Of a stretch of 64,000 bases of DNA, positions 3,601-50,665 are shown one piece after another. Source of the DNA: an uncultured Acidobacteriota bacterium (GTDB lineage Bacteria; Acidobacteriota; Thermoanaerobaculia; Multivoradales; JAGPDF01); NCBI GenBank assembly GCA_963803995.1, contig CAWDOT010000012.1, positions 140,822-204,821 of the forward strand, given 5' to 3'. The notes under the pieces were generated by a model. That model did not search any database, had not been told where the DNA came from, and saw nothing but the letters and a program-made list of their open reading frames with translations. The number at the start of each line of letters is the position of its first letter. Within the stretch, counting starts at the first letter, position 1. A program made the translations under genes and the position numbers.

Positions 3601-4185
3601 GATGTCGTCGAGCCGGAGCAGGTTGGCGGAGGCCTCCTCGAGCTTGACCTCGGCGACCTTCTTGCGCGCCTTGTAGCGCGTGATGCCGGCGGCCTCCTCG
3701 ATCAGCTTCCGGCGCTCCTGCGGCTTGCCCGAGAGGATCAGACCGATCTTGCCCTGCTCGATCACCGAGTAGGCTCGGATGCCGAGGCCGGTGTCCATCA
3801 GCAGATCCTTGATCTCCTTGAGCCGGACGATCTTGCCGTTGATCCGGTACTGGCTCTCGCCGCTCCGGAAGACGCGGCGCGAGATCGTCACCCGGCCGTC
3901 GTCGCTGCCCGCGAAGCCCGGGTCGGCGAGGAAGGAGAGGGTCACCTCGCCCATGCCGAGCGGCTTGCGCTTCTCGGATCCGTTGAAGATCACGTCTTCC
4001 ATCGTCTCGCCGCGCAGGGTCTTGGCGCTCTGCTCGCCGAGCACCCAGGTGATGGCGTCGGCGAGGTTCGACTTGCCGCAGCCGTTGGGCCCGACGATGC
4101 CGGTCACGCCGCCCGCGAAGCGCAGCTCGACGGGGTCGACGAAGGACTTGAATCCGGACAGCTCCAGACGATCGAGTTTGAGCAT
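652..4185 (-). CDS. smc: Chromosome segregation protein SMC
   Basis: ORF 652..4593 trimmed to the ATG at 4185 (MLKLDRLELSGFKSF). Walker A GPNGCGKSN, very long Ala/Glu/Arg-rich coiled-coil arms with a central hinge, C-terminal signature SGGEKALTAIALLFA and Walker B ILDEVDAPLD. 1177 aa with no frame disruption. Confidence 0.95.
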   Translation of the reverse strand: MLKLDRLELSGFKSFVDPVELRFAGGVTGIVGPNGCGKSNLADAITWVLGEQSAKTLRGETMEDVIFNGSEKRKPLGMGEVTLSFLADPGFAGSDDGRVTISRRVFRSGESQYRINGKIVRLKEIKDLLMDTGLGIRAYSVIEQGKIGLILSGKPQERRKLIEEAAGITRYKARKKVAEVKLEEASANLLRLDDIVSEVERNLRSLKRQAGAARRYQERRGELDALQRTVLLGRWARLAGELAERRIALGAAQTAETDLAADVHRQEAELAALRETVEQMAEALAERARRQAELGATIEGRQQYLAGARRTLAEIDARLGAGAALAARRSDETTQRAAAAAELAERRAALVADHDRAAAEVEADGARLREVERAAADADARLEAARRELLASLGELDALRQRVHREQIENERGSFRQRHLFEELHQRTQELEEAARELAAAESRLAEIDAELAGREERLGVARAALEALLAQEKTAAERLRGLETEHAARGERQRFLAELAESEAGREAELASRLAEAGVADPARLGARVHALRGWETSLDLYLGELLEAVLVPEGSSGLELAARLAGRGRSAGALLEPVAIEPAAWPRPQDAAIVASLGDALGLAPELARALPPAFLVEDAAAAERLARLWPGVAFLTRDRLWIEGGVVHLQGAEALPGFLARTSELGDLEGEIDRLGGEVETTSADIETLVARRAESAQGIHRLQEEVAALRQERAVTGARREELSGRHRRLSTSEASLQREQSDLAGELERLARLRQESGDELGRLEALHAGRERGFDGLRQEVEGIRRERESVRALGAGRRGQLDVLTERLRSLEQQASRIEREIEAARQEGAAWIAEADGLAGRKHELEQGMARAAQDLQEALELRAGGEEVVRAEEDRLDAERQAVRRRDESVTAARVEHDGARGRVEELRVALTGLERDAAHLEAELAERCGEIPPEIPGEVPANLAELEVDLARLREQVEAFGPVNVLAAEEYTAEEERHKFLTVQRADVARSVESLRSTIREINQTSSARFKEAFALVNEQFSRTFVELFRGGEAEMRLMDEEDLLESGIEIVARPPGKRLQNLMLMSGGEKALTAIALLFALFRIKPSPFCILDEVDAPLDDVNTLRFVAMLKQLSQETQCIVITHNKLSMEVCGTLYGVTMEERGVSKLVAVQLEELQPETAAASA

Positions 4186-4288
4186 TCCCGCTCCCAGAAG
4201 GCGAAGTCGAAAAGTACCAGAAGGACTGGCGGACGCACAAGATCTTGGGGTATCTTCCGCCAGCGTAACTACATATGGGAGATCGACC

Positions 4289-5068
4289 GTGACCGGGCGG
4301 AGGGGGGCCGGAGTCGTCCTGGCGCTGGTGGCGGGGCTCGCCGGAGCCGCGCGCGGGCAAGCTCCGTTCGTCACCGACGACGCCGGGACCGCGGCGCCCC
4401 GCCAGGTGCATGCCGAGCTGTTCGCGATCGGCTCCGACCTGCCCGACTCCGACCATCCGGCGAGTGCCCAGCGGACGCTGGTGCTGTCCCTGGCGACCGG
4501 CCTCGGCCCGGCGGTCGAAGTGGGGCTCGACTGGCCCTGGATCGGCATCCGGTCGGACGGGGCGGCGGACGTTGCCGGCGGCGGCGACCTCAATGTTTAC
4601 GTGAAATGGCGCTGTTTCGAGGGTGCTGGTGGCGGTCCGGCGCTCGCGCTGGTGGGCGCCCTGGAGTTGCCGACCGGCGACGAAGCCAAGGGGCTGGGCT
4701 CGGGAGAACGGGACGAGACGCTCAATGCCGTCGCCGAGTGGGTCGGCGTGGGCGGGGTCGACCTCCGGGCGAATCTCGGGGTCGTCTTCGCCGGCAACTC
4801 GCTGACCGGCAAGGTCGGCCTCACCACGGATTCGCGCATCTGGACCGGAGGAGTCTCGGCGACGGTGGAACGGGCTCGATTCGCGGTCGGCGCCGAGGTC
4901 ACCGCGGCGGTGGGGCAGCGCGCGGGGGAAAACAGCCGGGAACTGCGTCTCCAGGCCGGTCTCCGCCGGGCTTTCGGCTCGCGTTCGACCCTGGGATTCG
5001 GCGTTCAGCGGGGCTGGCAAGAGGCGCCCCCCTGGCAGGCGCTGCTGGGAGTCACGATCGACCTCTGA
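4289..5068 (+). CDS. Secreted outer-membrane beta-barrel-like protein (family uncertain)
   Basis: In-frame GTG at 4289 preceded by GGGAG (4278-4282). Signal peptide VTGRRGAGVVLALVAGLAGAARGQAP, then alternating Gly/aromatic-rich amphipathic beta-strand pattern to the C-terminus (WQALLGVTIDL). The upstream part of ORF 3779..5068 is antisense to smc and was discarded. Confidence 0.55.
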   Translation: MTGRRGAGVVLALVAGLAGAARGQAPFVTDDAGTAAPRQVHAELFAIGSDLPDSDHPASAQRTLVLSLATGLGPAVEVGLDWPWIGIRSDGAADVAGGGDLNVYVKWRCFEGAGGGPALALVGALELPTGDEAKGLGSGERDETLNAVAEWVGVGGVDLRANLGVVFAGNSLTGKVGLTTDSRIWTGGVSATVERARFAVGAEVTAAVGQRAGENSRELRLQAGLRRAFGSRSTLGFGVQRGWQEAPPWQALLGVTIDL

Positions 5069-5081
5069 GCGGGGCCGCGCG

Positions 5082-5102
5082 CAGGGCCCGCGCCGGGCCC
5101 TG
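5082..5102 (+). terminator. GC-rich hairpin after the OM barrel gene (possible terminator, no U-tract)
   Basis: CAGGGCCCG-CGC-CGGGCCCTG, a perfect 9-bp stem with a 3-nt loop, 14 nt after the stop at 5068. No T-run follows, so its function is uncertain. Confidence 0.3.
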
Positions 5103-5196
5103 CTGATAGGCTGATCGCCGTCGCTCGACCGCGGAGGCACTCCTGGCGCGAACTTCGATCCGCTCGAAGCTCTTCCTGAGCCACTTCCTCGCCGTC

Positions 5197-6564
5197 GTGC
5201 TGGTGTCCGGGAGCATCGGCACCTACTTCTACCGCCAGGCGACGGGCTCACTGCTGGAGAGTCTGCGGGCGCGGCTCGCGTACAGCGCGGGGCTGCTCTC
5301 GCGCGCGCTCGACGCCGCCGAGCTCGACGCGATCCTGGGCCCCGCCGACGCCGAACGTCCGGAGTACCGCCGCCATCTCGAGCTGCTGCGCGAGTTTCAG
5401 GGTGCCAACCGGGACGTCGCCTTCATCTATGTCATGCGCCGCGACGGCGACGAGGTCCGCTTCGTCCTCGATTCCGACTCGAGCCCCGATCAGGCGCGGC
5501 CTGGAGACCGCTACGAAGGTGCCCCGCCCCGCCTGCTGGAGGGCTTCGAGCGGCCGGCCGCCGACGACGCGATCGCCCGGGACCGGTGGGGCTACTTTCT
5601 CTCCGGCTACGCGCCGCTCAAGAACGGCGGCGGCCGCTACCTGGTCGGCATCGACATGCGCGCCGACGAGGTCCAGGCCAAGTTCGCGCGGATCCGGATC
5701 GCCGGCGGCGTCTCGCTCGTCCTTTCGATCCTGCTGGCCGCGCTTTTCAGCCAGTGGCTGGCGGCGCGCATCACCAGGCCCCTGTCGCGGGTGATCGACC
5801 GCACCGCCGAGATCGCTCGCGGCGAGCTGACCGGCGAGGTCCGGGTCACCGGAGACGACGAGCTCGAGGACCTGGCCGAGGCGGTCAACCGGATGGCCGC
5901 CGACCTGCTCGAGAGCCAGCGGCGGGGCGAGCAGGCGCGCGCCGAACTGGTCCGGACCAACGCGACTCTCGAGGAGCGGATCGACGAGCGCACTCGGCAG
6001 CTCACCGAGGTCAACGACACGCTGCGCGCCGAGATCGAGGAGCGCAAGGCGGTGGAGATCCGGCTGGAGCGCGCGGCGACGATCGACCACCTGACCGGCC
6101 TGTTCAACCGGGCGGCCATGCTCCGACTGCTCGACCAGGAGGTCGAGCGGATGCGACGGGCGACGGCGCCCTTCTCGCTCTTGCTCGCCGACCTGGACTT
6201 CTTCAAGCCGATCAACGATCGCTTCGGCCACGGCGTCGGCGACGAGACGCTGCTCCGGATCTCGGCGATCCTGCGCGGCACGTTGCGCGGCCAGGACGCC
6301 CTCTGCCGGTGGGGAGGCGACGAGCTGATGTTCTTCCTGCCCGAGACCTCGCTCGCCGGCGCCGCCGAGGTCGCCGAGAAGGCGCGCCGGCGGCTCGCCG
6401 AGGAGGTGCTGCCGATCGAGGAGCACCGGCTGCAGGTCACCCTGAGCCTGGGGGTCGCCGAGGCGCGCCTCGACGAGCCGGTGCGCGACCTCGTCCGCCG
6501 CGCCGACTCCGCGCTCTACCGCGCCAAGCTCGAGGGGCGCAACCTGGTGCGCACGGCCGGGTGA
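5197..6564 (+). CDS. Membrane sensor diguanylate cyclase (periplasmic sensor-HAMP-GGDEF)
   Basis: 455-aa ORF with a GTG start (N-terminus may be slightly longer). TM helix, ~150-aa extracytoplasmic region, second TM (IAGGVSLVLSILLAALFSQWLAA), HAMP (RPLSRVIDRTAEIARGEL...LAEAVNRMAADL), coiled coil, and a GGDEF domain (DHLTGLFNR, I-site RGQD, active-site variant GGDEL). Confidence 0.85.
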   Translation: MLVSGSIGTYFYRQATGSLLESLRARLAYSAGLLSRALDAAELDAILGPADAERPEYRRHLELLREFQGANRDVAFIYVMRRDGDEVRFVLDSDSSPDQARPGDRYEGAPPRLLEGFERPAADDAIARDRWGYFLSGYAPLKNGGGRYLVGIDMRADEVQAKFARIRIAGGVSLVLSILLAALFSQWLAARITRPLSRVIDRTAEIARGELTGEVRVTGDDELEDLAEAVNRMAADLLESQRRGEQARAELVRTNATLEERIDERTRQLTEVNDTLRAEIEERKAVEIRLERAATIDHLTGLFNRAAMLRLLDQEVERMRRATAPFSLLLADLDFFKPINDRFGHGVGDETLLRISAILRGTLRGQDALCRWGGDELMFFLPETSLAGAAEVAEKARRRLAEEVLPIEEHRLQVTLSLGVAEARLDEPVRDLVRRADSALYRAKLEGRNLVRTAG

Positions 6565-8494: not shown

Positions 8495-9432
8495 CGGAGG
8501 CCGGCTGGACCCGCAAGGACCTGCTCGGGATCGAGGAGCTGTCCGTTGCGGAGATCGAGCTGATCCTGGAAACCGCCGAGTCCTTCGCCGAGGTCGCCGA
8601 GCGCCCGGTCAAGAAGGTGCCGACGCTGCGCGGCAAGACGGTCGTCAACCTCTTCTTCGAACCTTCCACCCGCACCCGCGTTTCGTTCGAGATCGCGGCG
8701 CAGCGCCTGTCGGCCGACATCGTCAACTTCTCCGTCGACCTCTCGTCGCAGACCAAGGGCGAGACGCTGCGCGACACCGCGCGCAACATCGCCTCGATGT
8801 TCCCGGACTTCGTCGTCGTCCGCCACCGCCACGTCGGCGTGCCGGGAATGCTCGCGCGCGAGCTGACGGCGGGGGTGGTCAACGCCGGCGACGGCTCGCA
8901 TGAGCACCCGACCCAGGCGCTGCTCGACGCGCTGACCATCCGCCGCCGCAAGGGCTCGATCGCCGGCCTGACGGTGGCGATGGTCGGCGACATCGCGCAC
9001 AGCAGGGTGGTGCGCTCGAACATCCACTTGCTGACCCGCCTGGGCGCGAAGGTGCGGGTGGCGGGGCCGCGCACGATGGTGCCGCCCGAGATCGCCGCGC
9101 TCGGCTGCGAGGTCCACCACACGCTCGAGGAAGCGATCCGCGACGCCGACGTCGTGATGATGCTGCGCCTCCAGCTCGAGCGCCAGCGCCGGTTCCTGTT
9201 CCCGAGCCTGGGCGAGTACGCCCGGCTCTTCGGTCTGACCGCGCAGCGGCTCGAGGCGGCGAAGCCCGATGCGATCGTCCTCCACCCGGGCCCGATGAAC
9301 CGCGGAGTCGAGATCACCAGCGAGGTGGCCGACGGTCCGCGCTCGGTCATCCTCGAGCAGGTCGGGCAGGGCGTGGCGGTGCGCATGGCGGCGCTCTACC
9401 TGCTCGCCGGCGCCCGGGAGCGCGCGCGATGA
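8491..9432 (+). CDS. pyrB: Aspartate carbamoyltransferase catalytic subunit
   Basis: 313 aa. Carbamoyl-phosphate site [13 protein letters not shown], plus [10 protein letters not shown] and HPGPMNRG motifs. It has 4-nt overlaps with pyrR and pyrC. Confidence 0.95.
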
Positions 9433-19515: not shown

Positions 19516-19935
19516 GGAGGGTCGAAGGGACGGAGAGAGAGAAGAAGGAAGACCAAAGAAGGAAAAGACCAAAGAAGGAAAAGACCAAAGAAGGAAAAGA
19601 CCAGAGAAGGAAAAGACCAGAGAAGGAAAAGACCAGAGAAGGAAAACGGTCTCCTTCGTGGTTGTCTCGTCGTGCGGCCGACGGCACCTCGGACCGTGGA
19701 AATGCGATGAGGGCGCGCCCGTTGCCGGAGCTGCGGCGCTCGAGGAGCAGGGGTTGCGGGCGATGCGGTGGCCCCGGAAGTCAGCGACCCGCGTCTGGGG
19801 CGGAGCCATCGACGCCCCGACCCGGCCGACGCCAGGCCCGCCTCCTCCCTTCTATGGGCTTTTTCTTCTTGGCTTCTGCTCTCTTCTGTTCTGCTTCTGC
19901 TTCTCTCTGCTCTTTGTCTCGTCGTTCTCTCGAAT
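19516..19935. repeat. Long-hairpin repeat element, copy A (purine-rich left arm, pyrimidine-rich right arm)
   Basis: Non-coding gap between convergent genes. The left arm is GA-only. The right end CCCTTCTATGGGCTTTTT (19847-19864) plus a CT-only tail matches the right ends of copies B, C and D. The interior CATCGACGCCCC...AGGCCCGCCTCC is similar to copy B2 (CATCGACCCGCC...AGGCCCGCCTCGG). Confidence 0.7.
19544..19649. repeat. Tandem repeat, 16-bp unit GAAGGAAAAGACCARA x ~6.5
   Basis: Units counted by hand at 19544, 19558, 19574, 19590, 19606 and 19622, with a partial unit at 19638. The unit resembles the family left end GAAAAGCTCCAGAGAAGG. Confidence 0.9.
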
Positions 19936-21432: not shown

Positions 21433-24116
21433 ATGAGCCGATCCACACTGAGTCTGCACCGGGCTGTCCGTTCGTCCGCGCACTTGAGCCGCCGGCGTCC
21501 GCTCGCCCCGGTGATCGGCGCCGCCTGGCTGATCGCGGCCCTGCTGACCGTCCCGGCGCTCGCCCAGCCGGGGACCGGATCGCGCTGGTGGGATTTCGGG
21601 CCCTCCGGATCGAACGGGTCGTTCGTCGAGATCACCCGGGTCATCGACGGCGGCGTCTCGGCCTACGCCGTCGCCGCGGACCCGCTCAATCGGGTGCTGA
21701 CGCTGACCCAGTGGAAGGACGCCACGATCGACTTGAACCTCGACTGCGCCGTCACCCGTCACTTCCAGAACGCCCGCACGCTCGACATGGAGTTCACCGG
21801 CGAGCTCGAGGCCACGCGCCGGGTCGCGCTCGACCTGGGCGGGGGGCAGGACGACCACTGCCTGGCGATGGACGTCGACGCGTTCTCGCGGCCGGTGATC
21901 GTCGGCCACGCCAGCACCGCCGGGCCGGATGCGGCTTTCGTGGTGCGCCTGGCCGCGGCCGACGGCGCCTACGACAACTCCTTCTCCTCGAACGGCAGGT
22001 TCACGCTCGAGAACCTGGTCGGCTTCCTCGGCAGCGAGACCCGCTTCTCGGACGTCGCGATCTACCCCGACCGGCGCGTCCTCGCCTGCGGCTTCGTCGA
22101 GCGGGGGAGCGAGCGGAACATGCTGGTCATGCGCTTCCTCTCGAACGGCTCGCTCGACACGAGCTTCAACGGCAGCGGCTACCGCGAGATCGACTTCAAC
22201 GGCGCGGGAAGCGACAACGACGTCTGCGAGCGGCTGCTGATCCTGCCCGACCAGCGCATCGTGCTGGCCGGCACGGCCAACACGCCCTCGACCGGGGACG
22301 TCGCTTACGCCCTGGCGCGGCTCGACGACGACGGCAGCCCCGACTTCGGCTTCTCCTTCGACGGTAAGGTCGTCATCGACGACGCTTCGGTCCTCACCAC
22401 GCCCGCGGTCGTGGACGTCGCCTACGACGCCGCGCGCCAGCGCCTGGTGGTCGCCGCCAACACGACCGGGCTCAGCGTGACCCCCGGCGGCGCGCTGGTG
22501 GCCGTCGGCGACGGGGGCGTGCTGGACGGCACCTTCAACGGCACCGGCCGGCGCAGCCTCCGCTTCTCGGAGTTCGGCCTCGGCACGCCGCCGCGCGAGC
22601 CGGGCGCGACCTGGCTGCGGCGCCTCCTGATGCGTGCCGACGGCAGCTTCTACCTCGCCGGCACGCACGAGAACAGCGCCGCCGACGCTGCCATTCTGGG
22701 GTCCCAGGGACGTGGCGCTCGCCCGCTTGCGTCCGGACGGCGGCGACGACGCCCTGATGGGGACCGGGTTCTCGACCGACGGCATCGCCTTCTACGCCTA
22801 CCCGGGGATGGGCCACAGCGACGTCGGCTCGGAGGAGGAGCGCCTGGTCGTGGGCGACACCCTCGAGGACGCGATCTTCTACCGCGGCAATGTGCTGCTG
22901 CTCTCCGAGACGAATCGCCACCCGGAGGGCCACTGGGGCGGCGCCGACTGGAACCTCGGTCCGATCGCGCCGGTGCTGGCGGCGATCGTGACCGACCGGA
23001 TCTGGCACGAGGACTTCGAGGACGACGGGCTGGCGGAGCCGACTTCGATCTACGCGACGATCCCGGTGCCCGCCGGCTACGGCCGCTACTGCAGCGTGCG
23101 CGACCCGGTCTCGGGCGGCTTCGGCCTGCTGCCGCAGGGCGCCGCGAGCGACCCCTGTCAGGTCATGCTCGACAGCGATCCCGACCTGATCGTCGAGCGC
23201 GCCGGCCTCTACTCGCTGGCCGGGCCGAACAACGTCCTGGCCACCTGCGCCGGCGGCTACGTGGGGCTCCATCCGGGCAACGGCGGGGCGCCCTTCGACG
23301 CGGCCCTCGCCGCCGCGGCGGGGCGAACCGACTGCGTCTTCACGGCCGCGCCGGTGGCCCTGCCGGTCTTCTCGCGCCCTTACACCGGAGGCCATCTCGC
23401 AGGCGAGCGCACAGTCGTTCAATCACGACCCGTTCCACAAGCCGATCGACGTCAGCGACTTCGGCCAGACGCCGAACGCCGCCCATCCGCTGGCGCACTA
23501 CATCGATCTCAACGGCATCCAGAAGTGCTACGACCCGGGCGGCCCCGACGATCACGAGGTTATCGGTGGGGTCGACGAGGCGGCGGCGGACATCCTGGTC
23601 GAGAGCGACCGCGACGTGGTCGCGGTCGCGGCGGGCAGGGTGGCCGCGGCCGTGCCCCGCTACGCCCTGATGTGGGCGCCGGTGGGCGGCGATCCCCACC
23701 AGCGCGAGGTCTTCGTGCGCCACTCGATCGGCAGCGGCCGCTACAGCGAGCAGTTCACCACCTACTACGCCCACATGTCCGACACCCGCGTGCGGAGGGG
23801 GGACGCGGTGGTGGCGGGCACGGTGCTCGGCGAGGTCGGCACCACCGGCGCGTCCTCGGGTGAACACCTGCACATCGCCGTCTTCCGTCACAGGAACCTC
23901 AGCTACCGCGCGTCCTGGGAGCTCGACTACTCGCGCGCCGACTTCTTCGAGCTGGGCAAGGAGCTCGCCGCGATCGATCCGTGGGGCTGGCGCGGACCGC
24001 AGGGCATCGACCCCTGGGCCTGGCGCTTCAAGTTCAACGACGGCGACCTGCCCGACTACGCCGGCAGCTGGAGCATCAACCTCTGGAAGGCCGGCGAGGC
24101 GCCCACCATGGACTGA
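21433..24116 (+). pseudogene. Secreted delta-60-repeat protein fused to a C-terminal M23 peptidase domain, two frameshifts
   Basis: ATG 21433 with a signal peptide (AAWLIAALLTVPALAQP). Repeats of ~60 aa each carry D-x-S/T-F-x-x-x-G (DNSFSSNGRF, DTSFNGSGYREIDF, DFGFSFDGKV, DGTFNGTGRR). Shifts at about 22690 and 23385. The C-terminal frame (to the stop at 24116) has M23 motifs YYAHMS and GTTGASSGEHLHIAVF. It could also be two adjacent genes. Confidence 0.7.
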
Positions 24117-24130
24117 ACGATCGCGGGGAC

Positions 24131-24545
24131 CGGGTTTCGGGGACAGGCACCGGTTCCACCCCCAGGATCGCTTCGCCCCGGCGTCCCGGGGCGCGGCGGC
24201 GAACTGCTCCAGAGAAGGAGAGGTGCAGGCCCGGGACCGCAGGTCGCCCGATCGACCGGCCGCCGCCAGGCCCGGCGCGGCTCCTTCTCTGGAGCTTTTG
24301 CTTTGGGATTCGGGGACAGGCACCTTTCGGGTGCGGCCCCGGACAGGCCCGGGATCAGGCGCCTCACCCGGACTGGACACTTCCCCCTCGGCGTCCTCGG
24401 CCGCGGCGGCGAAAAGCTCCAGAGAAGGAAAGGCGCAGGCCCGGGTGCATCGGTCGCTTCATCGACCCGCCACCGCGAGGCCCGCCTCGGACCCTTCTAT
24501 GGAGCTTTTGCTTCTCGTTCCTCTCTGTCCTCCCGCTGCTTGAGA
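24131..24545. repeat. Long-hairpin repeat element, two tandem copies (B1 24131-24305, B2 24311-24545)
   Basis: Each copy begins GGGGACAGGCACC. B1 has a perfect 15-bp inverted repeat, GCTCCAGAGAAGGAG (24206-24220) and CTCCTTCTCTGGAGC (24281-24295). B2 has GCTCCAGAGAAGG (24416-24428) and CCTTCTATGGAGC (24493-24505) with one mismatch. Both end in CTGGAGCTTTTGCTT, and B2 adds a CT-rich tail. Confidence 0.8.
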
Positions 24546-24622
24546 AGGGTTTCTGGCGCGTTCTTCTGGGTGTTGCACTTCGCGGGCGGTGCGCGCACTC
24601 TGGAGAGAAAGGAGGCAAGCCC

Positions 24623-25609
24623 ATGAGGTGCTTCGTCACGGGAGCGACCGGGTTCATCGGGTCGCGGGTCGTGCGCCGCCTTGTGCAGGGCGGCCATCAG
24701 GTGCGCTGTCTGGTCCACCGGCCGGAGAAGGCCGCAGTGCTCTCGGGCCTGGACGTCGAAGCCGTGCAGGGCGAGATCGACGATCGCACGCTGCTGCTTC
24801 CGGCGATGGAGGGCGTCGACTGGGTCTTCCACCTCGCCGCCCTCTACGACTTCTGGACGCCGAAGCCCGCCGAGTACTGGAGGGTCAACGTCGACGGCAC
24901 CAAGGCGGCGCTCGAGGCCGCGCTCGAGGCGGGGGTCCGAAAGGTCGTGCACGTCAGCTCGTTCATCGTCTACGGCGAGCCTGATGTGCAGCCCCTCGCC
25001 GAGGGGGTCCCCGAGGGCCCGCGGCGCTTCAGCCGGTACGCCGAATCGAAGCACGCGGCGGACGAGCTCGCCTGGGAGCTGCGCCGCACCCGCGGGCTGC
25101 CCCTCGTGGCGGTCTATCCCGGGGCGGTGGTGGGCGAGGAGGACCCGAAGCCCTCGGGGGATTACGTGCGGGCGCTGGTCGAGCACAAGCTGCCGGCCAC
25201 CCTCCTCGAGCAGTACGTCTTCCCCTTCGTCTTTGTCGACGACGCCGCGGAGATCGTCGTGCGCGCGGCCGAGAAGGAGGGCAACGAGGGCGAGCGCTAC
25301 TTCGCGGTGGCGGAGAACCTCACCTGGGGTGAGCTCAACCGGCAGATCTCCGAGGCCTCGGGCGAGCGCCTGCCCCGCCTGCACATGCCCGGCCCGCTGG
25401 TGATGCCGGCCGCCGCGGCGATGACCTTGCTCGCCGACCTGACCGGACAGCCGCCGCTCTGGGGCATGGCCGTCGACCAGATGCGCACGATGAAGCACGG
25501 CACACGGGTCGACGGCGGCAAGGCGGTACGCGAGCTCGGCGTCCGCTACACCCCGATCCGCGAGGCCCTGGCCCGCGCGATCGGCGCCGCCCACGCCGGG
25601 GTCGGCTGA
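24623..25609 (+). CDS. NAD-dependent epimerase/dehydratase (extended SDR)
   Basis: ATG 24623 preceded by AAGGAGG. Rossmann motif VTGATGFIGSRVV and catalytic YxxxK in YAESKHAAD. 328 aa. Confidence 0.85.
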   Translation: MRCFVTGATGFIGSRVVRRLVQGGHQVRCLVHRPEKAAVLSGLDVEAVQGEIDDRTLLLPAMEGVDWVFHLAALYDFWTPKPAEYWRVNVDGTKAALEAALEAGVRKVVHVSSFIVYGEPDVQPLAEGVPEGPRRFSRYAESKHAADELAWELRRTRGLPLVAVYPGAVVGEEDPKPSGDYVRALVEHKLPATLLEQYVFPFVFVDDAAEIVVRAAEKEGNEGERYFAVAENLTWGELNRQISEASGERLPRLHMPGPLVMPAAAAMTLLADLTGQPPLWGMAVDQMRTMKHGTRVDGGKAVRELGVRYTPIREALARAIGAAHAGVG

Positions 25610-25678: not shown

Positions 25679-26323
25679 TCAGAGGGGGGCCAGGCTCCAG
25701 CGGCAGGTTTCGCCGACCTCGAAGTCCTCGGCGAAGATCCAGTCGGTGCGCGTGACGCGGATCTCGTCGAACTGCACCGAGATGGCCGGTTCAGCGCCGA
25801 CGATCTGGGTTAGGAAGACTCTCAGCTGTGCGCTCTGGACCGTCGGAGGCGGCGTGAAGGGCCCCCCTTCGACGTGCTGCCAGCCCGCGACGCTGCTCTC
25901 CGCGTAACCAGCGAAATGGTCGTCGATGTCGGCGCCCCCGCAATCCGCGTCGTCGAAGAAGCCGAGCGTCAGATTCGAACGGGCAGCGTAGATGCTGCTC
26001 TCGAACCGGAAGTCACCCGACATGCGGAAGCTCTCGGATGGGGAGACCGCTCCCAGGCAGATACTGAACAGCACGGATGCGAAGTCGGAGGAAGGATCAC
26101 CGGAGGCCAGAGCGACGCCCGACCCGACGCAGTCGTCCCGGTCGAGCGATCCGTCGAAGGTGAGCGAGCTGCTGGTCGGAAAGGCCACGGTCCAGCCGCT
26201 CACTCCGTCCGCGAGATCGAATCTTCCGTTGGGGACCAGGTTCCCGGTCTGGGCCATGACCAGCGCGCACAGCACTGCCAGGGCCGCGAATGTCGCGACC
26301 GTGAGGCGATGGTCGAAATACAT
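25679..26323 (-). CDS. Secreted hypothetical protein (jelly-roll / CBM-like guess)
   Basis: 214 aa. Signal peptide (TVATFAALAVLCALVMAQ), beta-rich sequence, SD GGAGGGA before the ATG. GC is visibly lower than in neighbouring genes. Confidence 0.6.
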   Translation of the reverse strand: MYFDHRLTVATFAALAVLCALVMAQTGNLVPNGRFDLADGVSGWTVAFPTSSSLTFDGSLDRDDCVGSGVALASGDPSSDFASVLFSICLGAVSPSESFRMSGDFRFESSIYAARSNLTLGFFDDADCGGADIDDHFAGYAESSVAGWQHVEGGPFTPPPTVQSAQLRVFLTQIVGAEPAISVQFDEIRVTRTDWIFAEDFEVGETCRWSLAPL

Positions 26324-39893: not shown

Positions 39894-39932
39894 GGGGACA
39901 GGCACCCGCGGTGCCTGTCCCCGTTTCTTTTC
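39894..39932 (+). terminator. Rho-independent terminator after the S9 peptidase gene
   Basis: GGGGACAGGCACC-CGC-GGTGCCTGTCCCC, a perfect 13-bp stem, followed by GTTTCTTTTC. It begins 40 nt after the stop codon. Confidence 0.8.
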
Positions 39933-39952: not shown

Positions 39953-40260
39953 AGCTAGAAGCTAGAAGCTAAAAGCTAAAAGCTAAAAGCGAAAAGCAAA
40001 AGCTCCAGTTAAGGGGTTGTGGGCGGGGCGTCCGTGGCTCGATCTGGCAGCGGTGGCGCCGCTGAGGTCGCGAGGTGCGGCGGGAGGCTTCTCGAGGACG
40101 AGCGGTCTCGGGCGGCCACGGCCGCTCGATGGAGCCACCATCGCCACGCCCACAACCCCTTAACTGGAGCTTTTGCTGTTTTCCTTTTTCTTTGCTCTCT
40201 GCCTTGGGCGTCCTGGCTTCGAGGCAGGCCCTGGAGCTCTCTGTCTCGGCGGTTCTTCTC
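39953..40260. repeat. Long-hairpin repeat element, copy C, with perfect 30-bp terminal inverted repeats
   Basis: GCAAAAGCTCCAGTTAAGGGGTTGTGGGCG (39996-40025) and its exact reverse complement (40147-40176). It is preceded by seven tandem 7-mers GCTARAA (39954-40002) and followed by a CT-only tract. Confidence 0.9.
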
Positions 40261-48381: not shown

Positions 48382-50665
48382 TCAGTCCTCGGGCGGTCGC
48401 GCCCACTCGGGCTCGATCTCGGGGAACGGCAGGTCGAGGTCCGCCCAGGCCGGGAGGCGGCGCGCGCGGGGTCCGAGGTCGATCACTTCGCGCAGTCGCG
48501 CGCAGTGCTCGCGGAAGCGCATCTCGGCGTAGTCGCGCCCGGTACCCATGGTGACCAGGAAGGGCCAGTCCGAAGCCGCGGCGAGCAGGAGCTGGTTGAG
48601 GATCGTCCGCCGCCACTTGCGCGACCCGCCCCAGCGCACGGCGGCGAAGGCGCGCCGCTCGAGGTCGGCGAGCTCCCACCAGAACCACTCGGTCTCGGGG
48701 TTGACCCAGACCCGATGATCGCCGCCGGCGCCCCACGAGCCCTCGGCGAAGAAGGCGCGGCGCAGCGCCGGCTGGGCGTCGAGCTCGTGGGACGGCGTGG
48801 TCGCCTCCACCGCGGCGCCGGGCGCCGCCAGCTCGAGCACCCGCTCGAGCCAGACCGGACCCTCGAACCACCAGTGCCCGAACAGCTCCATGTCGAAGGG
48901 CGCGCAGACCACGCCACCGCCCATGCCGTCGAGGCCGGCCGCCAGCGCGAGGAAGTGCTCCGCCTGCTCGTGGGCGCGCGCGCGCGCGTCCTCCGGCCAG
49001 TAGACCAGCTTGTCCGCCATGTCGACCTGGCTCTGGGTCACGCGCCAGAGGCGCAGCCCGGAAGGCCAGTGGCGCTTGTGGAAGTCGAGGAAGGCGCCGT
49101 CGCCCGGATAGCCGCCCTGGCTCGACCAGACCTGCGCGGCGCTGCGCGCGTCGCGCAGGAACGCCGCGACGGCGCTCTGGCGGATCCAGTAGGGGCGGGG
49201 GTGCGGTCCGCCCGGCTCGACCACCTGGTCGGGCGGCAGCTGGGAGCCGTAGGGGAAGGCGGGGTCGCCGGCGCGCACCAGGTGGGCGTCGACCACCGTC
49301 CAGTTGAGCCCCTGTTCGGCGAGGAAGAGCTCGTTGCCGGGGCGGCTCTCCTCGGAGGCGCCGGTGACCGGATGGCGCCAGGGCCCCCCCGGCCGGTAGG
49401 CGCACTCCGGCATCCAGCAGCCGCGCGGATCGATGCCGAACAGCTCGCGGTGGCTCTCGCGCCCGGCGCGCAGCGCCAGCCGGATCAGCTTCGAGGTGTG
49501 CGCGAGCGGCAGGTAGACGTGAGTGCCGGCCGAGGTGGAGAGCTCGATCGTGTCGTTCTCGGCGAGCGCCGCGAGCGCCGTCACGAGGTTCTTGTCGAAG
49601 GACTCCCAGAGCCCCTTCAGCCGCTGGTACTCGCCGTGCCACCAGAGGGCGAGCGGGTGGCGCTTGCGCGTCTCCCAGGCGGCCTTGGCGCGCTCGGCGA
49701 GATAGCGGTCGACGACGCCGACCGTGCGCGGGTCGGCGAGCATGGCGCCGACCACCGGGGTCACCGAGACCGTCGCGACGTGGCGTCGCCCCTTCCCGCC
49801 CAGCCGCCGGAAGACGTCGAGGAGCGGTAGGTAGCAGTGCGCGATCGCCTCCGCCAGCCAGTCCTCGCCGTGGGGCCAGGTGCCGTGGCCGAGCACCCAG
49901 GGCAGGTGCATGTGGAGGACGAAAGCGATCCGGCGCGGCGAACCGTCGACGCGGCCGGAGGCGGCGGCCGTGAAGGCGGGCGGCTCGAGCGGCGGCCGCT
50001 GCTTGAACTGGGAAGAGGATCCGCTCGCGCTCGGCCGCGCTGAGCCGGACGCCGGCGGCGGCCGCGGGCCCGACCGGCGCCTCCGGTTCGCTCCCGCCCT
50101 CGGCCCCGCCGCCGACCTCGACTCCGCCCCCGACCCCGACCGGGACGCCCACTTCGCCCGGCTCGGGCTGGAACTCGACCGGCGTCGTCAGCACCGAGCG
50201 CGGCGGCGGCTCCGGCCTGGCCGCCTCGCCAGCGAGCTTAGGCAACTCGGCGAAAGGAGGGAGGCCAGCCCGGGACGGAGGCTGGTCTTCGGAAGGCAAA
50301 AGCTCCATAGAAGGGGTCGTGGCGGGCGAGGCGCCCTTGCGAGTCCGGCGCTTCGTGGGGGCGGCAGCGCCCTCCGGTTTGGCCTTGGCAGCCGCCTTGC
50401 CCTTTGCGCCCGACCCGGCCTTCGAATCCGGTTCGCCACGCCTGCCGGCGGCGGCCGCTGCGCTCGCCTTTACGCCCTTTCCTTGGGCTCCCGCTGCCTT
50501 CTTCGGGCTGGTGGCGGTCCGGCGGCGGCGCGACTCCGCGTTCGGAAGCCCCGAACTCGCCTCGGCAGCTTCAGCGACCTCGACCGCAGGCTTTTTTTCC
50601 TTAACTGGGCTTTTGCTGTTCTTTACTTTGGGCGTGCTTCCCTTCGCCTTCGGCCGGTCGCTCAT
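48382..50665 (-). pseudogene. GH57 1,4-alpha-glucan branching enzyme with a ~230-aa Lys/Ala/Pro-rich N-terminal extension, one frameshift
   Basis: GH57 core IAFVLHMHLPWVLGHGTWPHGEDWL, GCWMPECAY and FDMELFGHWWFEG (ORF 48382..49911). No start codon lies in frame just upstream of the core. The only ATG (50665, ATGA overlap with the DHH stop) opens a different frame that meets the core frame at about 50005. The extension is therefore plausible but unproven. Confidence 0.7.
50296..50640. repeat. Long-hairpin repeat element, copy D, inside the putative N-extension coding region
   Basis: Left end GCAAAAGCTCCATAGAAGGGG (50296-50316). Right end CCTTAACTGGGCTTTTGC (50599-50616) plus TGTTCTTTACTTTGGGCGT, similar to the copy C right flank TGTTTTCC...CCTTGGGCGT. 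Confidence 0.65.

Follow-up and report, generated by a model that had tools for sequence, protein, structure and literature searches.

The window (the whole stretch of DNA that was analysed, 64,000 nucleotides) contains two co-directional genes, one encoding a protein with an M23-peptidase domain and the other an NAD-dependent epimerase/dehydratase, that are separated by a gap of 506 nt (24117-24622), counted from the M23 stop codon (24114-24116) to the epimerase ATG (24623). The gap is largely taken up by two head-to-tail repeat units, B1 and B2, which together occupy 383 nt and start 15 nt past the M23 stop codon. The features of the locus and the related hairpins found elsewhere in the window are collected in Table 1. 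The M23 gene as a whole (21796-24113) changes frame twice, at about 22,700 and 23,399, so that three frames are needed to read it. It is collinear with an intact gene (893 aa) in the related contig L122; the window version is either a pseudogene or the product of assembly indels. Broken gene calls were also found in the relative L132. On the far side, the epimerase is followed in the window by a minus-strand ORF of 214 aa that has no Pfam match (25679-26323), and in L122 directly by a DUF885 gene (4034-5803 of that contig); the neighbourhood thus differs there too.

Table 1. The array, its flanking genes and the other family copies in the window
Feature	Position	Strand	Evidence
Copy E, degenerate, between convergent TonB-receptor and permease genes	about 19516-19935		
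DUF5122/M23-peptidase gene, 3' part	23400-24116	+	Pfam Peptidase_M23, E=3e-12; collinear with the 893-aa gene of L122 (tblastn)
Unit B1 (box, spacer, long hairpin, T-rich tail), 173 nt	24132-24304	+	direct repeats and alignments
B1 GGGGACAGGCACC box, left half of a short palindrome family, here without a good right arm	24139-24151	+	motif search
B1 conserved GC-rich spacer CGCCCCGGCGTCCCGGGGCGCGGCGGCG, includes a small hairpin	24174-24200	+	alignment of 9 units, fold pairs
B1 long hairpin, GGTCG/CGACC apex	24206-24295	+	inverted repeat, fold; covariance model CM R1 113.8 bits
B1 T-rich tail TTTTGCTTT, directly 3' of the stem	24296-24304	+	sequence; terminator-like scan flags 24279-24296 plus tail
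Unit B2 (parts ordered as in B1), 210 nt	24305-24514	+	direct repeats and alignments
B2 box with degenerate right arm (GGGGACAGGCACC tttcg GGTGCggCCCC)	24312-24340	+	sequence
B2 long hairpin, arms AAAAGCTCCAGAGAAGG / CCTTCTATGGAGCTTTT	24412-24509	+	inverted repeat, fold; CM R1 110.5 bits
GGGTGTTGC...AGGAGG block, likely epimerase promoter/leader and RBS, outside the repeats	24568-24622	+	alignment of window, L001, L132, L122 and L002
NAD-dependent epimerase/dehydratase gene	24623-25609	+	Pfam PF01370, E=1.7e-37; homologs
Copy C, 30-bp perfect arms	39996-40176		arms and covariance model; CM R1 46 bits
Copy D, degenerate, between co-directional genes	about 50296-50616		

Both units follow the same plan: a box GGG(T/A)TTCGGGGACAGGCACC, a GC-rich spacer, a long imperfect hairpin and a tail TTTTGCTT(T/C), which after the stem of B2 reads TTTTGCTTC. 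A repeat finder returned two direct repeats between them, one of 128 nt without gaps at 81% identity (24176-24303 versus 24386-24513) and one of 20 nt at 95% identity that covers the box (24132-24151 versus 24305-24324). Over the whole units a gapped alignment gave 80% identity, the surplus of B2 being a segment of 37 nt that separates its GGGGACAGGCACC box from the spacer. The local alignment of B1 with B2 scored 144, where shuffled sequences scored about 20 on average (z=45), and alignments of B with the other family copies of the window scored between 25 and 57 (z<14). The preliminary description had proposed two tandem copies of a family element, on the proviso that the idea would fail if their similarity were confined to a short core. 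Since the similarity extends over the entire unit, the tandem pair stands, with the box included in the duplicated segment. The boundaries needed some adjustment: an end of B2 at 24545 is some 30 nt too far, as the similarity stops around 24514, and the proposed common ending CTGGAGC does not apply to B2, which ends with ATGGAGCTTTTGCTT (last arm ATGGAGC). B1 and B2 are one composite non-coding unit that was locally duplicated as a whole.

In each of the four arrays compared, the frame that follows the M23 stop codon runs through the gap without a stop. Open frames are common in every frame of this stretch of 68-69% GC, where stop codons are rare. A coding role of the array was rejected: the length of B1 (173 nt) is not a multiple of 3, and the gaps of close strains differ by 23 nt. 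A comparison with Rfam gave no match at the gathering threshold, and up to an E-value of 10 only chance matches to generic hairpin families.

The most prominent part of each unit is the hairpin, an imperfect structure of 98 nt that is closed by AAAAGCTCCAGAGAAGG and CCTTCT(C/A)TGGAGCTTTT and is followed by TTTTGCTT. Its base can be written as (AAAA)GCTCCAGAGAAGG / CCTTCT(C/A)TGGAGC(TTTT) and its apex as GGTCG-N6-CGACC. The arms were correctly given before: those of B1 (24206-24220 and 24281-24295) comprise 15 bp, are perfect and lie 60 nt apart, and those of B2 comprise 13 bp with one mismatch (G/A), or 17 nt at 94% identity when the AAAA/TTTT extension is counted. The stems have 34-38 pairs with internal loops. 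The predicted folding energies are -61 (B1) and about -52 to -53 kcal/mol (B2) for the plus strand, and -67.5 and -58.6 kcal/mol, respectively, for the minus strand. Both hairpins were more stable than all of 200 shuffled sequences on both strands, with z-scores of -3.2 to -5.5 (B1 -3.2 on the plus and -5.5 on the minus strand; B2 -3.8). The segments with box and spacer folded no better than shuffled sequences (z=-0.58 for 24131-24199 of B1, and +0.6). Among 14 family copies neither strand was consistently the better folding one, judged by fold energy and G-U pairs, so that a constraint at the level of RNA and one at the level of DNA cannot be separated on this basis. Covariation is likewise uninformative within the array set, because the sequences are too closely related: only one pair had changed on both sides among the 9 array units. 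There is an asymmetry in the flanks. The T tail on the plus strand was retained after every unit compared, and the A run that would form the tail on the minus strand was lost in B1 and in the first two units of L122 (U1 and U2). This pattern is consistent with a directional use of the hairpin.

The hairpin belongs to a small, dispersed family. The core GCTCCAGAGAAGG occurs 10 times in the window, where 2.7 matches are expected, and the window of 64 kb holds three well-formed copies (B1, B2 and C) besides two degenerate ones (D and E). The stem base, AAAAGCTCCAGAGAAGG on one side and CCTTCTCTGGAGCTTTT on the other, is conserved throughout the family, and the interior varies among the copies at other loci. 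In copy C the two arms have changed together, with TT in place of AG on one side and AA in place of CT on the other. Ten hairpins served to build a covariance model (CM R1), which retrieved B1, B2 and C from the window together with the metagenomic copies, and had no match in L002 or L141-L143. These metagenomic copies were encountered in a scan of metagenome contigs with a two-arm pattern, which returned 8 stretches, including four clear members (L133, L134, L135 and L137; 67-72% GC) with a AGCTCCAGAGAAGGG base and A-rich/T-rich flanks. A pattern search of viral contigs found neither the hairpin nor the box palindrome. A scan of genome contigs with GCAAAAGCTCCANNNAAGG (16 specified bases) gave at least 80 matches; those listed were single and apparently due to chance, in unrelated genomes, and the sole one from Acidobacteria among them (L004) falls in coding sequence.

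The copies are found at a recurrent type of position. Copy B lies between co-directional genes and copy C between convergent ones, and B, C, D and E all start less than 50 nt past a stop codon, as do the copies of L134 and L135 when GC3-filtered ORFs are considered. Moreover, the similarity of B2, E, D (on the reverse strand) and the L137 copy continues past the core for 36-54 nt of the right half and extends to the G/A mismatch (CCTTCTATGG), which favours a shared ancestral copy over separate inventions at each locus. The locus of copy E differs between relatives. The convergent permease and TonB-receptor genes are 434 nt apart in the window and the element is also present in the sister lineage (L147, 2872-3263), whereas in L142, a 70% relative, this convergent pair has just 7 nt between its stop codons (9371-9379) and the element is absent; the element thus appears to have been gained at this site. 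Named homologs of a neighbouring permease all derive from Thermoanaerobaculia or Acidobacteriota (64-68% identity), and Thermoanaerobaculia are the best named homologs for the high-GC contigs with family copies. The hairpin family is dispersed in a Thermoanaerobaculia-like lineage and appears to have been gained at particular sites over its history. The microsatellite that flanks copy E differs in unit, with 16-nt AAGACCA(A/G)AGAAGGAA repeats in the window (at 19.5 kb) and 13-nt CTTCTTCTTTGTG repeats in L147.

The box has a distribution of its own. The sequence GGGGACAGGCACC was found at 24139, at 24312 and as both arms of a palindrome at 39894-39922, that is 4 matches versus an expected 0.13. 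The latter palindrome is perfect over 13 bp, carries a T tail (39894-39930) and lies about 75 nt upstream of copy C. The earlier suggestion that the left arm of this hairpin is the same motif as the box, and may be part of the element, found support: the box lies inside the duplicated unit and is also present 5' of copy C. It is not obligatory for the long-hairpin family, because the four metagenomic long hairpins (L133, L134, L135 and L137) lack it, and hairpins with box-type arms occur alone in L002 (two, at 250-320 and 2650-2686), where the long hairpin is missing. The hairpins of the form GGGGACAGGCAC...GTGCCTGTCCCC make up a separate family of short palindromes, which have variable loops. 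Two lineages carry them in intergenic regions that are unrelated to each other, in some cases near a long hairpin and in others not.

Given a dispersed family with terminal inverted repeats (13-17 bp in B1 and B2, 30 bp and perfect in C), B1 and B2 could also be viewed as two independent, side-by-side insertions of a mobile miniature element of the MITE or REPIN type. The presence or absence of the element between lineages and the 36-54 nt shared by copies at separate loci would agree with such mobility. We nevertheless regard two separate insertions as extremely unlikely, as B1 and B2 have in common a box, a spacer and a hairpin interior that are missing in the other copies, a difference that is reflected in the z-scores given above. 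In addition, the arms of B1, B2 and C are not bordered by direct repeats that could represent a target-site duplication, the palindrome fading instead into A-rich and T-rich runs, and there is no pair of nearly identical copies at different loci. Neither the window nor the loci compared with it contained an autonomous parent element with matching ends.

The same gap was followed in the contigs that carry the 15 sequences of the 90% epimerase cluster. Two units are present in L001 (99.4% nucleotide identity of the epimerase gene) and L132 (97.2%), as in the window, versus three in L122-L127, L129, L131 and L145 (92.6%). In the latter nine contigs, which stem from separate runs or samples, the three-unit array is identical over 681 of 681 nt. 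The lengths of the gap in the four genomes are 506, 483, 468 and 681 nt. A comparison of copy number among relatives, as had been proposed, thus separates a two-unit from a three-unit state; the unit number differs between the sister lineages and appears to be fixed within the one that was sampled repeatedly. A phylogeny of the units placed the B2 type apart from B1 and the three units of L122 (94/99 support), and this lack of one-to-one orthology points to turnover of the array by duplication, loss or conversion. The next closest ortholog of the epimerase, that of L002 (73% aa identity), lacks the long hairpin and is preceded by another gene than M23; because of this different gene an empty site for the B locus cannot be defined there.

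Arrays occur in further strains. The contigs of two sequencing runs, X5 and X6, end or branch inside units, and X6 also contains a junction from unit to unit. The joints in these runs (24303/4 to 24560/8) were at one time considered to represent relatives with a single copy, a reading that was dropped as the contigs start or branch within a unit. The strains of X5 and X6 carry at least two nearly identical units, i.e. tandem arrays.

Between close strains the 5' part of B2 is the most variable segment of the array: L001 and L132 have a direct duplication of the box at this place and the window has a longer, different segment. The version of the window was absent from all indexed runs that were searched, and the surplus of 37 nt is therefore unconfirmed by independent data. 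Orthologous units within the lineage of the window are 94-99% identical. Across the two lineages the units show 80-87% identity versus 90-93% for the flanking genes, and in the third unit of L122 (U3) the right arm has decayed to CCATATATGG, with a fold energy of -41 kcal/mol (z=-1.6). The faster divergence of the units and the decay of this one imply that selection on single units is weak, or that the array is partly neutral.

These last observations bear on the possibility that the array is neutral or selfish repeat DNA, where a hairpin landed in a tolerant site behind a stop codon, stalled replication and had its segment duplicated by slippage, to the effect of neither gene. Besides the rapid divergence and the decaying unit, the variation of unit number by lineage without visible consequence, the absence of the element from more distant relatives, and the expansion of the flanks of other copies to microsatellites that differ between lineages (the 16-nt repeats at 19.5 kb and the 13-nt repeats of L147) would all fit. 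It is more difficult to reconcile with neutrality that the stem base is invariant and the spacer CGGCGTCC..GGCGGCGAA nearly so among the 9 units compared while the hairpin interior drifts, that every unit has kept the T tail on the transcribed strand, and that the three-unit allele is identical in 9 independent samples. The location of the family copies just past stop codons points in the same direction, but purifying selection against insertion elsewhere would lead to a similar distribution. Considering both sides, we hold a purely neutral array to be somewhat unlikely.

The position of the array upstream of the epimerase gene, on the same strand, had led to the suggestion that it could be a promoter module or a 5' UTR. 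This reading, a cis-regulatory leader, promoter module or structured 5' UTR of the epimerase, has little support, because the block that runs from GGGTGTTGC via AGGAGG to the ATG (24568-24625) lies outside the repeats and a scan found no sigma-70-like site within them. The block is invariant in the sequences compared, including the repeat-free 73% ortholog of L002, and it remains unchanged where the unit number is 2 or 3. Neither the absence of the array 5' of that same ortholog nor the lack of an Rfam match is in line with a riboswitch or structured leader. Moreover, copies C and E lie between convergent genes and have no gene start to serve. The sequencing runs labelled as RNA consist of assembled contigs without direction or transcript ends, which were compared with the window sequence, a diverged reference. 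Contigs of such runs reach 21-44 nt 5' of the conserved box, and the transcription start could consequently be nearer to the last hairpin. In the sole genuinely transcriptomic run (X25) the contigs, at low depth, begin some 76 nt 5' of the epimerase start codon; none covers the array and none joins a hairpin to coding sequence, which again speaks against a leader function. Altogether, we consider it very unlikely that the array serves the start of the epimerase gene. As for the GGGTGTTGC box itself (24568-24576), its place about 50 nt 5' of the start codon and its invariance make it a candidate for a promoter or an operator.

The other role that had been suggested, that of a terminator for the upstream M23 gene, is plausible, considering that the array starts 15 nt past the stop codon and consists of stable hairpins that are each followed by TTTTGCTT. 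A stable G+C-rich stem, a T tract and a preceding stop codon, the elements of an intrinsic terminator, are all present, although the geometry is not the compact one of a stem of about 5-14 bp and a loop of 3-8 nt: the stems of 34-38 pairs exceed the length usual for intrinsic terminators by a factor of 3-5, and other bases break up the T tract (TTTTGCTTT). A scan of the array with a terminator consensus found only a 6-bp sub-hairpin. We favour the interpretation that the array is a locally duplicated composite 3'-end module that acts as a tandem terminator or RNA stabiliser, and on the sequence evidence we judge this to be reasonably probable. In such a scheme the array would have originated by unequal recombination or replication slippage between units, and its turnover would have resulted in 2 units in the lineage of the window and 3 in the sister lineage. 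Upon transcription of the M23 gene each unit would form a hairpin with a stem of about 35-38 bp and UUUUGCUU directly behind it, and each hairpin may then act as a terminator of the intrinsic or factor-assisted type, as a block to 3'-exonucleases, or as both. The stacked units could provide a fail-safe stop that insulates the epimerase promoter, much like REP325 in yjdMN of E. coli. The REP325 array, located between the co-directional genes yjdM and yjdN, is a partially Rho-dependent terminator as well as an mRNA stabiliser; it reduces the transcription that continues into yjdN and protects the mRNA of the gene before it (bioRxiv 10.64898/2026.03.23.713779).

The array shares features with several known systems. 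Tandem and bidirectional intrinsic terminators similarly have a stable stem past a stop codon, preceded by an A run and followed by a T run, and in stacked form they make a fail-safe stop. Their usual stem is 5-14 bp, whereas it is about 35-38 bp with internal loops here, and unlike in ordinary terminators the sequence of the stem base is conserved across unrelated loci. The likeness to REP and BIME elements resides in the occurrence of dispersed extragenic palindromes after genes (co-directional or convergent), often in arrays and variable between strains. The units of BIMEs alternate in orientation, whereas the units here are arranged head to tail. REPs are also considerably smaller, with 20-40 bp versus a hairpin of 98 nt or longer (24202-24299) and units of 173-210 nt; the only REP-sized structure here is the separate GGGGACAGGCACC palindrome at 39894-39922. 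One end of a REP bears an unpaired tag, GTAG or CGTC, and position preferences have been described for these elements (PMC3733652). By eye, such a tag could not be found at the ends of the long hairpin or the box palindrome; the one CGTC noted forms the loop of the small hairpin in the spacer. The elements therefore fail REP membership on size and on the absent GTAG/CGTC tag.

The MIRUs of Mycobacterium are units of 40-100 bp that are no long palindromes and are often variable within species. Like these and other VNTRs, the present family is dispersed over intergenic sites and also forms head-to-tail arrays, the unit number of which differs between related genomes according to lineage. Its units are longer (173-210 nt), however, form hairpins and appear to be fixed in number within each of the lineages sampled. 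The ERIC/IRU and Correia (NEMIS) elements are imperfect palindromes of 100-150 bp or more with conserved ends, which reside in transcribed intergenic regions and affect RNA processing or termination. The elements described here are likewise imperfect intergenic palindromes with conserved ends, but they share no sequence similarity with either, lack the TA target duplication of Correia, and differ by an interior that varies by locus and by flanks of purine/pyrimidine runs that are prone to microsatellite expansion.

Taken as a whole, the array represents a new family within a class of repeats that is ordinary for bacteria. Its two tandem units are genuine and go back to a local duplication, and they probably serve as stacked signals for RNA 3' ends. 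A more far-reaching proposal would be that the long hairpins and the GGGGACAGGCACC palindromes together constitute a new REP-like superfamily of Thermoanaerobaculia without GTAG/CGTC tags, in which the AAAAGCTCCAGAGAAGG stem base is the recognition site of a dedicated trans-acting factor (a protein that binds or processes RNA, or else an HUH-type transposase with the hairpin in single-stranded form as its substrate) and the head-to-tail arrays are the equivalent of BIMEs. We put this forward as a rather doubtful suggestion; if it were true, the arrays would tune the insulation between neighbouring genes.

Interspersed palindromic repeats are well studied in Proteobacteria, and a limited literature search returned no paper that describes them for Acidobacteriota. 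The locus indicates that a Thermoanaerobaculia-like lineage has a repeat family of its own that forms head-to-tail arrays. The natural contrast between two and three units offers a means to test termination or RNA-end stabilisation by the hairpins, the more so because the three-unit strain is widespread in sludge and sediment metagenomes. In practical terms, the arrays could be used as strain markers; they also break short-read assemblies, with contigs that end or branch within units, and yield long spurious ORFs in high-GC DNA.

Two further observations concern the metagenomic members of the family. In L133 (about 1700-1990), L134 (about 1545-1830) and L135 (about 510-790) the long hairpin is enclosed by an outer inverted repeat, GGCTGCTGAGAAACCGAC ... 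GATCGGTTTCTGAGCAGCC, such that the outer and inner repeats form a nested palindrome of about 280 nt. In L137 (1409-1620) a second left arm is found 75 nt 5' of the first, and the right arm is followed by a pyrimidine microsatellite, (CTTGTT)n, which together make up a further case of slippage at the flanks of the element.
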